A stretch of DNA of 64,000 bases from an uncultured Candidatus Rokubacteria bacterium (lineage in GTDB: Bacteria > Methylomirabilota > Methylomirabilia > Rokubacteriales > CSP1-6): NCBI GenBank assembly GCA_963771355.1, contig CAVYTA010000006.1, forward strand, positions 2,656,001 to 2,720,000, in the 5' to 3' direction. Positions 49,381 through 50,549 of the stretch are shown piece by piece. Within the stretch, counting starts at the first letter, position 1, and the number at the start of each line of letters is the position of its first letter. Both the position numbers and the translations under genes were made by a program. The notes below the pieces were generated by a model, which saw nothing but the letters and a program-made list of their open reading frames with translations, ran no database searches and was not told the DNA's origin.

Positions 49381-49431
49381 GCGGCTCAAAAAGGTCCAGA
49401 TGCGAGGCGGCGCCCGAGGGCCGCACGCGAG
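49381..49431. repeat. left part of a ~120-bp palindromic REP/MITE-like element, split by IS110
   Basis: GCGGCTCAAAAAGGTCCA...GGCGCCC.AGGGCCGCACGC is an imperfect inverted complement of 50550-50617. Confidence 0.8.
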
Positions 49432-49446
49432 CGACTGTGTCGCGAG

Positions 49447-50379
49447 TCAAGCCAGTTCCCAACGACGGCCATCCCGGACCATGGCGTTGAGGATGACCAA
49501 TAGCTTCCGCATTGCGGCGACCAGCGCCACCTTGCCGGGCCGGCCGGCGGCGACGAGACGTTGATATTGCGCGGCGATCACCGCGTTGCAGCGGATCGCG
49601 GTGATCGCGGCCATGTAGAGGACGGTGCGAACCGCCGCGCGCCCGCCGCCGATCATGCGGCGTCCTCGGAACGTGCCACTGTCTCGGTTCAGGGGCGCAA
49701 TACCCACCAGTGCCGCGATCCGGCGGCGATCCAGCTGGCCCAGTTCGGGAAGCTCGGCGATGAGCGTCTGCGCTGTCACATCCCCGACCCCGGGGACGGA
49801 CTTCAGCACCTCCTCCCGCTCCCGCCAGATCCCGCTCCCGCGAATCGTCGCCCGCAAATCGCGCTCGAGTTCCTGCAAGGCCGCCCGCAGCCACTCTCGG
49901 TGCGCGGCGATTCGCTGCCGGACCCGTGGCTCCCGCGCCTGCCGCTGCCGATTCGTCTCCGCCGCCAGCATCTCGACCAACTGGCGCCGCCGCACCACGA
50001 GTTCCGCCAGCTTCTGCGCCTGCTCGTCGGGCAGAGCCCGGACGGGGGGGCGCACCGCCTCGCCGAAAAGCGCCAGCATCTGCGCATCGAGGACATCGGT
50101 CTTCGCCAGGCGTCCCGTCGCTCGCGCAAAGTCTCGCACCTGTCGAGGATTGACCACGGCCACCGGCAGGCCCGCACCGGCCAGCGCCGCCGCGACCGGC
50201 ACTTCGTACCCGCCGGTCGCTTCCAACACCACCAGGCGGGGGGCCAGCCCCTGCAGCCGCGTTACCAGGTCCTGCACTCCCGTCTCGTCCGCGGCCACCG
50301 CAAAGGTCTCTGCCTGCGGCCGCACATGGACGTCCAACCGCTTCTTGGCAATATCGATGCCCACGATGATCTGTTCCAT
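49447..50379 (-). CDS. IS110 DEDD recombinase/transposase
   Basis: GIDIAK, VLEATG, KTDVLDA (D-E-D-D); SVPGVG and RDSG (C-terminal catalytic Ser region); ORF intact. Confidence 0.95.
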
Positions 50380-50535
50380 GTCCCGTCCTTGCATGCGGGC
50401 TCCCGCGGCCCAAGTGACTGTTCGGGTTAACGATGGAACAGCGGACGGAGCACCGAGCTCGCGTACGGTCTTCGAGGACCCAGGCGTGTGCGGGCTTCCG
50501 TCCGCCTTACCGGGGCGTCGCTGACTGGCGCCCCC
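50380..50535 (-). ncRNA. IS110 bridge RNA (predicted)
   Basis: Non-coding end with guide pairs matching the target (ACGCCT/ACGCGAG) and the donor (ACAGTCACT/ATGCAAG), each pair bracketing a hairpin. Confidence 0.8.
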
Positions 50536-50549
50536 ACCCAACATACAAG

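Follow-up and report, generated by a model that had tools for sequence, protein, structure and literature searches.

The minus strand of the window (the whole 64,000-nucleotide stretch of DNA analysed here, to which plain coordinates refer) carries at 50549-49430 an insertion sequence of the IS110 group, 1120 bp long including both CT cores. We are confident that this element is intact, that guide loops in its left end match both the ends of the element and the site where it has landed, and that it likely moves by bridge-RNA-guided recombination at the CT core into a hairpin repeat of ~125 bp. All features of the element and its target described below lie on the minus strand.

The ends of the element (49430-50549) were fixed by an identical second copy with different flanks. 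A search of the whole genome containing the window (G000) placed this copy at G000:C8:62168-63287, 100% identical over 1120 bp, and the same genome-wide search found no further IS110 proteins besides the two copies. The flanks of the second copy are unlike those of the window, yet they belong to the same repeat family, broken at the same base. Comparison of the two copies places the left CT core at 50548-50549 and the right CT core at 49430-49431, bearing out the earlier note, which had described an intact IS110 with CT ends. Read on its own strand, the element starts with CT-TGTAT and ends with ACAGTCG-CT, giving a right donor arm TGTAT at the element left end (50543-50547, read from the sequence) and a left donor arm ACAGTCG at the element right end (49432-49438, by its match to the left donor guide). 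The non-coding left end, up to the ATG at 50379, measures 170 nt, and 15 nt separate the stop codon from the right core. A short core shared by both ends and a scarless empty site are features of the IS110 family, and the long left end and short right end are those of the IS110 (IS621-like) group; the 15-nt right end and the position of the guides in the left end do not fit the IS1111 group.

The recombinase gene (49447-50379) encodes 310 aa, within the 300-460 aa of the family, and was assigned by Pfam, NCBIfam and alignment to IS621 and ISCro4 chains. Both PF01548 (DEDD RuvC-like) and PF02371 are present above the Pfam cut-offs, and NF033542, 'IS110 family RNA-guided transposase', scores 223 bits against a cut-off of 140. 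The only related solved structures are the IS621 (E 3e-42) and ISCro4 (E 8e-43) chains, and identity to IS621 is about 37% by a hand count on the printed alignment. All five catalytic residues are kept: D9, E53, D95 and D98 of the RuvC-like DEDD site and S234-G235 align with D11, E60, D102, D105 and S241-G242 of IS621, which are described as essential in the accessible part of PMC11208158. The best named protein relatives, with 86% and 82% identity, come from Candidatus Rokubacteria, and the protein cluster has 27 members, one of them on 95 contigs. A 315-aa gene call from 50394 was rejected in favour of the start at 50379, because AAGGA precedes 50379 and the ATG at 50394, which lies inside the right donor guide, is not conserved.

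The earlier note had located four guide segments in the left end (ACGCCT at 50487-50482, ACGCGAG at 50464-50458, ACAGTCACT at 50421-50413 and ATGCAAG at 50394-50388), and all four lie at these places, although the extent of two had to be redrawn. In the target-binding loop domain (50440-50506, drawn from pair counts), with outer stem GGCGGACGG / CCGTCCGCT and inner hairpin 50480-50467, ACGCCT is the matching part of a 9-nt slot, CACACGCCT at 50482-50490, whose last 6 nt match the element's own target and which mismatches it at -5, -6 and -7. The right target guide, ACGCGAG with a handshake C at 50457, occupies 50457-50464. The donor-binding loop domain (50381-50426), drawn from pair counts and guide matches in relatives, contains the left donor guide ACAGTCACT (50421-50413), an inner hairpin (50411-50397) that is paired in relatives, the right donor guide ending in CAAG (50391-50388) and a handshake G at 50387, which pairs target position 7. 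The left donor guide matches left donor plus core except at position 7, where its A faces a donor G in the comparison, a mismatch that occurs also in the copies of genome G006 and in L157. For the right donor guide, only the last 4 nt (CAAG) of the proposed ATGCAAG agree with the donor in relatives (98-100%), and the preceding 3 nt do not (23-28%).

Evidence for guidance comes from comparing guides and flanks across relatives, as the earlier note had recommended. Loci were gathered from named genomes (80) and, in addition, from relatives, giving 122 in all, 106 of them with the gene. Guide columns were read from the alignment blind to the targets, with an alignment-based parser that replaced a regex parser keeping 32 of 82 loci. 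In the first set 62 of 106 loci were parsed at both ends, and the other 44 were set aside, 3 as duplicates and the rest for lack of an end or anchor; one misaligned row was then excluded, leaving 61 elements with 47 distinct target programmes. The second set consists of 52 parsed loci among 80 from metagenomes, with 49 programmes. Because parsing kept 62/106 and 52/80 loci and required a CT right core, the guide counts describe the well-behaved part of the clade.

Target guides and their own flanks match at 369 of 423 positions in the 47 programmes, against a mean of 152 and a maximum of 193 in shuffles, and the replicate set of 49 metagenome programmes gives 357 of 441 (shuffles: mean 157, maximum 191). 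Agreement in both sets is thus far beyond shuffles, and the target guides lie on opposite strands as the bridge-RNA model predicts, so that guides and targets covary in both sets. In the 47 programmes the left guide agrees with the flank at -5 to -1 in 55, 79, 79, 85 and 96% (shuffled 26-73%), figures lowered by a few rows that are one base out of register, and gives no signal at -6 or -7. The right guide agrees at +1 to +5 in 98, 96, 89, 81 and 83% (shuffled 27-33%), with no signal at +6 or +7. Since the guide-flank signal spans -5 to -1 and +1 to +5, the working target register is about 4-5 nt + CT + 5 nt (ACGC-CT-CGCGT). Kinship cannot produce such a match, because the relatives, though not independent, have widely differing targets. 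In the same 47 relatives the left donor guide matches at 96-100% per position over positions 1-6 and the right donor guide at 98-100% over 4 nt; this agreement is a match and not covariation, because the donor is nearly invariant and the parser located the right end by the guide.

Within the subclade of this element the left guide hardly varies, and variation in the right guide follows the subtype of the target repeat. In L159 the right guide AGGCGAG matches its own repeat subfamily at 7/7 positions, in L112 GCGCGAG does so at 7/7, and L160 matches at 6/7. More distant relatives in the same family (59-67% identity) have other guides and other targets.

Pair counts in the 47 relatives support the IS621-type layout of the left end that had been proposed, with a CT core and a target loop followed by a donor loop: the stems covary and the handshake bases pair. 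In the outer stem of the target domain 331 of 416 cells are paired, with 108 two-sided changes, whereas slid controls give 166-229 paired cells and 21-48 such changes. The two inner hairpins noticed earlier, GGTC/GACC and GGGC/GCCC, are real, with 180/188 cells paired in the target and 186/188 in the donor loop (slid controls at most 97 and 93), and the donor outer stem has 174/184 cells paired. A 5-pair closing stem beside the target loop, with 147/235, is no better than its -1 slide (143/235). RNAalifold on 18 unevenly trimmed sequences recovered both inner hairpins in the consensus fold and missed the outer target stem, which was found by pair counting on the fuller alignment. The fold of the single sequence, which also gives a predicted 5' stem-loop of the bridge RNA (GGGGGCG / CGCCCC, 50512-50535), has a z-score of -0.74, leaves the right donor guide with an unpaired probability of about 0, and pairs the guides partly or wholly, their partners being other guides or the 5' donor arm. 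As a test of open guide loops this single fold is uninformative; the open loops are supported by the comparison of relatives. No Rfam family matched at the gathering level, and three weak matches fell below the cut-off.

The handshake rule described in PMC11208158, in its accessible part, also holds in these relatives. In 46 of 47 the nucleotide that follows the right target guide can pair with donor position 7. For the nucleotide that follows the right donor guide and target position 7 the count is 44 of 47, compared with a mean of 33.6 and a maximum of 40 in shuffles; six of the seven non-C targets at position 7 have the compensating base. Once the ends are joined, a predicted -35 box TTGACT (49445-49450) and a predicted -10 box TATGTT (50540-50545) come to lie 17 nt apart, and by consensus match this motif is found in 33/47 junctions versus 1/47 integrated left ends. 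In the integrated element no promoter was called. Signals of gene and RNA also overlap at both ends of the reading frame: the last part of the donor loop shares its sequence (within 50390-50377) with the start codon and with AAGGA at 50390-50386, the likely ribosome-binding site, the recombinase stop codon overlaps the -35 box of the predicted junction promoter, and both arrangements recur in relatives.

If the element follows IS621, its ends would join into a circle, by excision or copy-out, and the joint would rebuild the TTGACT-17-TATGTT promoter. An RNA of ~155 nt would then be transcribed from about 50535 to the start codon, and a recombinase tetramer would bind its target loop and donor loop. 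Top strands would be cut after CT via S234 together with D9/E53/D95/D98, and the handshake pairs C50457-donor G and G50387-target C would favour strand exchange. Even for IS621, whether the circle arises by excision or by single-strand copy-out is still open according to the accessible parts of PMC13626964 and 10.64898/2026.08.31.748434.

Removal of the element and one CT restores an imperfect palindrome of ~125 bp, which aligns with 11 intact copies in G000; the empty site as reconstructed in the earlier note therefore stands. The left part of the interrupted repeat lies at 50550-50620 (by alignment with intact copies) and the right part, starting from the right target CGCGT, at 49378-49429 (by copy comparison). 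Fold and repeat comparison show a target hairpin CGTAG-AGAGA-CTACG (50551-50565) whose 3' arm is the left target, and other copies read CGTAC...GTACG. A repeat profile search of G000 gave 21 hits, among them the halves of split copies, a lone half copy and one copy interrupted by a different insertion sequence; 3 of the hits are reverse-strand self-matches. In the window, convergent stop codons flank the repeat on its two sides. In all ten insertions whose protein is at least 75% identical (2 in G000, 4 in G006 with 80-86%, and L157-L160 with 97, 77, 77 and 75%) the repeat family is broken at TACGC-CT, in support of a guide aimed at a palindromic host repeat; both junctions are visible in nine of them and only the left in L113, and named-genome loci were left out of this count to avoid double counting. 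The repeat occurs in 57/121 genomes of the host's phylum and in 50/72 of its family, and the left junction in 2/159 genomes of that family; these tallies include the unpublished G030, on which alone no claim rests.

The repeat had been called lineage-specific, a description that did not survive. Its hairpin core is present in 39/201 genomes of another phylum, the one holding L055 (a delta proteobacterium), where a backwards control matched 2 genomes, and full-length relatives occur there as well: in L141, L143, L144 and L149, 4 of 14 loci tested, the match covers the greater part of the repeat profile, with E 5e-11 to 2e-8. A search with a long exact pattern of the repeat gave 0 matches in 121 loci and a strict core pattern 0 in 42 genomes with distant relatives, both patterns being too strict. 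Related sequences at L136-L149 and in G347 and G350 present the host repeat as part of a cross-phylum hairpin family of ~130 bp with a conserved core ACGTAC-loop-GTACGCCTC and up to 95 matches in one genome.

Several further observations concern the repeats and their occupants. At G000:C1:55164-55300 and C6:1212068-1212202, repeat copies appear to give the neighbouring gene its last codons and stop, and two other G000 copies lie at the 5' start of long frames. A frameshifted element with HTH_21 and rve domains and TG...CA ends (L156, G000:C6:1227610-1228880), which we take to be IS3-like, splits another repeat copy a few bases upstream of the hairpin; two IS families thus use the host repeat. 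The repeat holding the second IS110 copy (L081) has, at G000:C8 about 62132-62146, a 15-bp insert TGGGCAAGCCCACAC at the same spot as L156, and a match of TGGGCAAGCCCACAC to the end of the IS3-like element suggests that it is possibly the footprint of that element. The two flanks of L082 in G006 differ in repeat subtype, and L113 carries the complementary left flank and lacks the right end; either rearrangement between copies or misassembly would account for the two. A different palindrome that is also widespread, of the CCCCTCACCC / CCCTCTCCC type, seems to be the target of many distant relatives, which have different guides (L019, L036, L045, L052, L056-L058, L093, L114, L115 and L162). In a relative from Chloroflexia, the left flank at L006:1276 and upstream is identical to the RNA of that relative itself as far as the left guide and core, which would look like an insertion into its own target loop. 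Elsewhere in the window, at 53651-55147, a 498-aa frame resembling a TRAM-domain RNA methyltransferase begins well within a longer frame; judged by eye, it is an ordinary neighbour.

The alternative that survives best keeps the bridge-RNA mechanism and adds a gate: the hairpin holding the left target would serve as a second recognition feature, as in ISPpu10, and would explain why all copies lie in the repeat. The register, with its short tolerant left and 5-nt right part, resembles that of ISPpu10 in the accessible part of 10.64898/2026.03.19.712850, and the hairpin of 5 bp that has the left target as its 3' arm keeps its pairing through a G/C swap between repeat subfamilies. All 10 close insertions lie in the repeat, though 3 of the 6 free perfect sites and 109 of the 113 one-mismatch sites in G000 are outside it, and L111 is in the repeat with a right guide that has one mismatch and two wobbles. 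However, the two insertions in G000 match perfectly over 11 nt, and for them no more than sequence is needed. The three perfect non-repeat sites are in long frames with GC3 of 0.89-0.91, two of them clearly mid-gene, and because these sites lie in probable genes their emptiness is explained equally well by selection. The hairpin itself has little stability (-4.0 kcal/mol) and in any case belongs to the repeat. Among clade sites, a significant hairpin just 5' of the core is found in 13/59 versus 5/118 upstream control windows, but 46/59 lack one, downstream controls reach 7/59 and several positive sites share a genome; on these figures the target hairpin is not general in the clade. A poor right-guide match in L082 was rejected as evidence for a gate, its flanks coming from different repeat subtypes. 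We therefore regard the gate as a tentative reading, rather doubtful at present. Equally speculative is its fuller form, in which a Rokubacteria-associated IS110 subclade would be tied to a hairpin repeat found across phyla in two ways: by a fixed left guide reading the 3' arm with the hairpin as gate, and by a right guide re-aimed to repeat subfamilies.

It is unlikely that the IS110 is correctly described but now inactive or poorly active, its two copies stemming from a recent burst or from gene conversion. No circle joint was seen among the contig joints of 4 runs, the guides mismatch left target -5 and donor position 7, and at least three perfect free repeat targets in G000 are unused. Against this stand the open frame, the full set of catalytic residues, the intact promoter halves and the protein cluster described above, and the donor mismatch is common to the G006 copies and L157. 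This negative result from contigs is not absence, because contigs drop rare forms. The 100% identical copies with different flanks, together with the intact parts, point to recent movement, and the earlier note's 'probably active' remains plausible from sequence. An intact look is no guarantee of activity outside the host, since in a screen in human cells junctions were obtained with only 18 of 72 orthologs (10.1101/2025.05.14.653916).

The stretch is contained in 20 listed runs from 11 studies, mostly of soil and rhizosphere; at least half of its words are present in 16 of these runs, and one run may be its source. The element is present in RNA libraries at depths of about 9 and 6, where DNA cannot be excluded. 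Empty-site joints from 49429 to 50548, seen in all 4 runs, were rejected as evidence of excision; free repeat copies yield the same joint, which makes them uninformative on this point. A 130-nt RNA contig of X15 covering window 50413-50513 has a depth of 44 against 9 for the gene and was set aside, because it comes from a relative (4 substitutions, 2 gaps) and contig depth cannot rank expression; its restriction to the target-loop region, deeper than the gene, is a weak hint of bridge RNA expression.

A further reading, in which the protein itself picks the repeat and the resemblance of guides to target and donor arose by chance or is left over from local duplication, is very improbable, for although the matches are short (6-9 nt) in a genome of 70% GC and Rfam holds no matching family, guides change with flanks far beyond shuffles in both the 47 and the 49 programmes, on the predicted opposite strands and in a covarying scaffold.

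Judged by its sequence, the element falls into the group of IS621 and likely operates in the same way. IS621 of E. coli and ISCro4/IS622, as presented in the accessible parts of PMC11208160, PMC11208158 and 10.1101/2025.05.14.653916 (PDB 8wt6, 9t56), have in common with it a DEDD + serine recombinase, the CT core, a long left end with 5' stem-loop, target loop and donor loop, a junction promoter, handshake bases, a REP-type target and a donor that starts with ACAGT and ends with CTTGTAT. It differs from IS621 in its ~37% identity (hand count), its length of 310 versus 326 aa, its donor ACAGTCG and its repeat. IS621 has a target register of 7 + CT + 2, in contrast to 4-5 + CT + 5 here; its guides are 9 nt left and 4 nt right, and longer right target guides in some orthologues are noted in the accessible part of PMC11208160.

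Close kin of the element were already on record. Unnamed IS110 orthologues in the supplements of Durrant 2024 (PMC11208160, files 4 and 5) have the same donor ACAGTCG-CT-TGTA, with at least 313 matches to ACAGTCGCT in each file, and in two rows compared the donor-loop scaffold is nearly the same. 'New', as the element had been called, is thus overstated; the target ACGCCTCGCG, like the word 'Rokubacteria', gave 0 matches in the readable parts of these supplements, and this target programme may be unlisted there. Our literature search found no paper linking the Rokubacteria lineage to an IS110 element.

Insertion of IS110 elements into REP repeats has long been known (accessible parts of PMC1525189 and PMC12288879). 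According to the accessible part of a preprint (10.64898/2026.03.19.712850), ISPpu10 of Pseudomonas putida is also a REP-targeting IS110 with a CT core, a junction promoter, a tolerant distal left guide, a 5-position right guide and a target hairpin of ~5 bp including the left target. In ISPpu10 dependence on the hairpin was measured (integration fell to 44% without the stem), whereas here it is only suggested, and repeat and host differ. IS1111-group seekRNA elements (PMC11187229, accessible part) have the same enzyme family and RNA-guided target choice; unlike this element, with its 170-nt left and 15-nt right end, that group has long right ends and sub-terminal inverted repeats of 7-17 bp (PMC11208160, accessible part).

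The element is a clean further example of IS621-like bridge recombinases, whose RNA-guided mechanism was published in 2024, and not a new system. The bridge-RNA model is unchanged by it, thousands of such elements, this clade included, having been catalogued in 2024. It offers a compact (310 aa, 1.1 kb) and distant (~37% to IS621) candidate bridge recombinase from a high-GC soil lineage, whose fully readable guides, donor, handshake bases and promoter make it suited to an ortholog screen. Moreover, its naturally long right guide and hairpin target allow the question whether the structure of a target makes an 11-nt guide more specific to be tested directly in a second element. If the gate were true, nature would have provided an independent instance of targeting by sequence plus structure, for which ISPpu10 is the one example shown so far. 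For the element itself, a multicopy repeat at gene ends as target likely provides safe landing sites.
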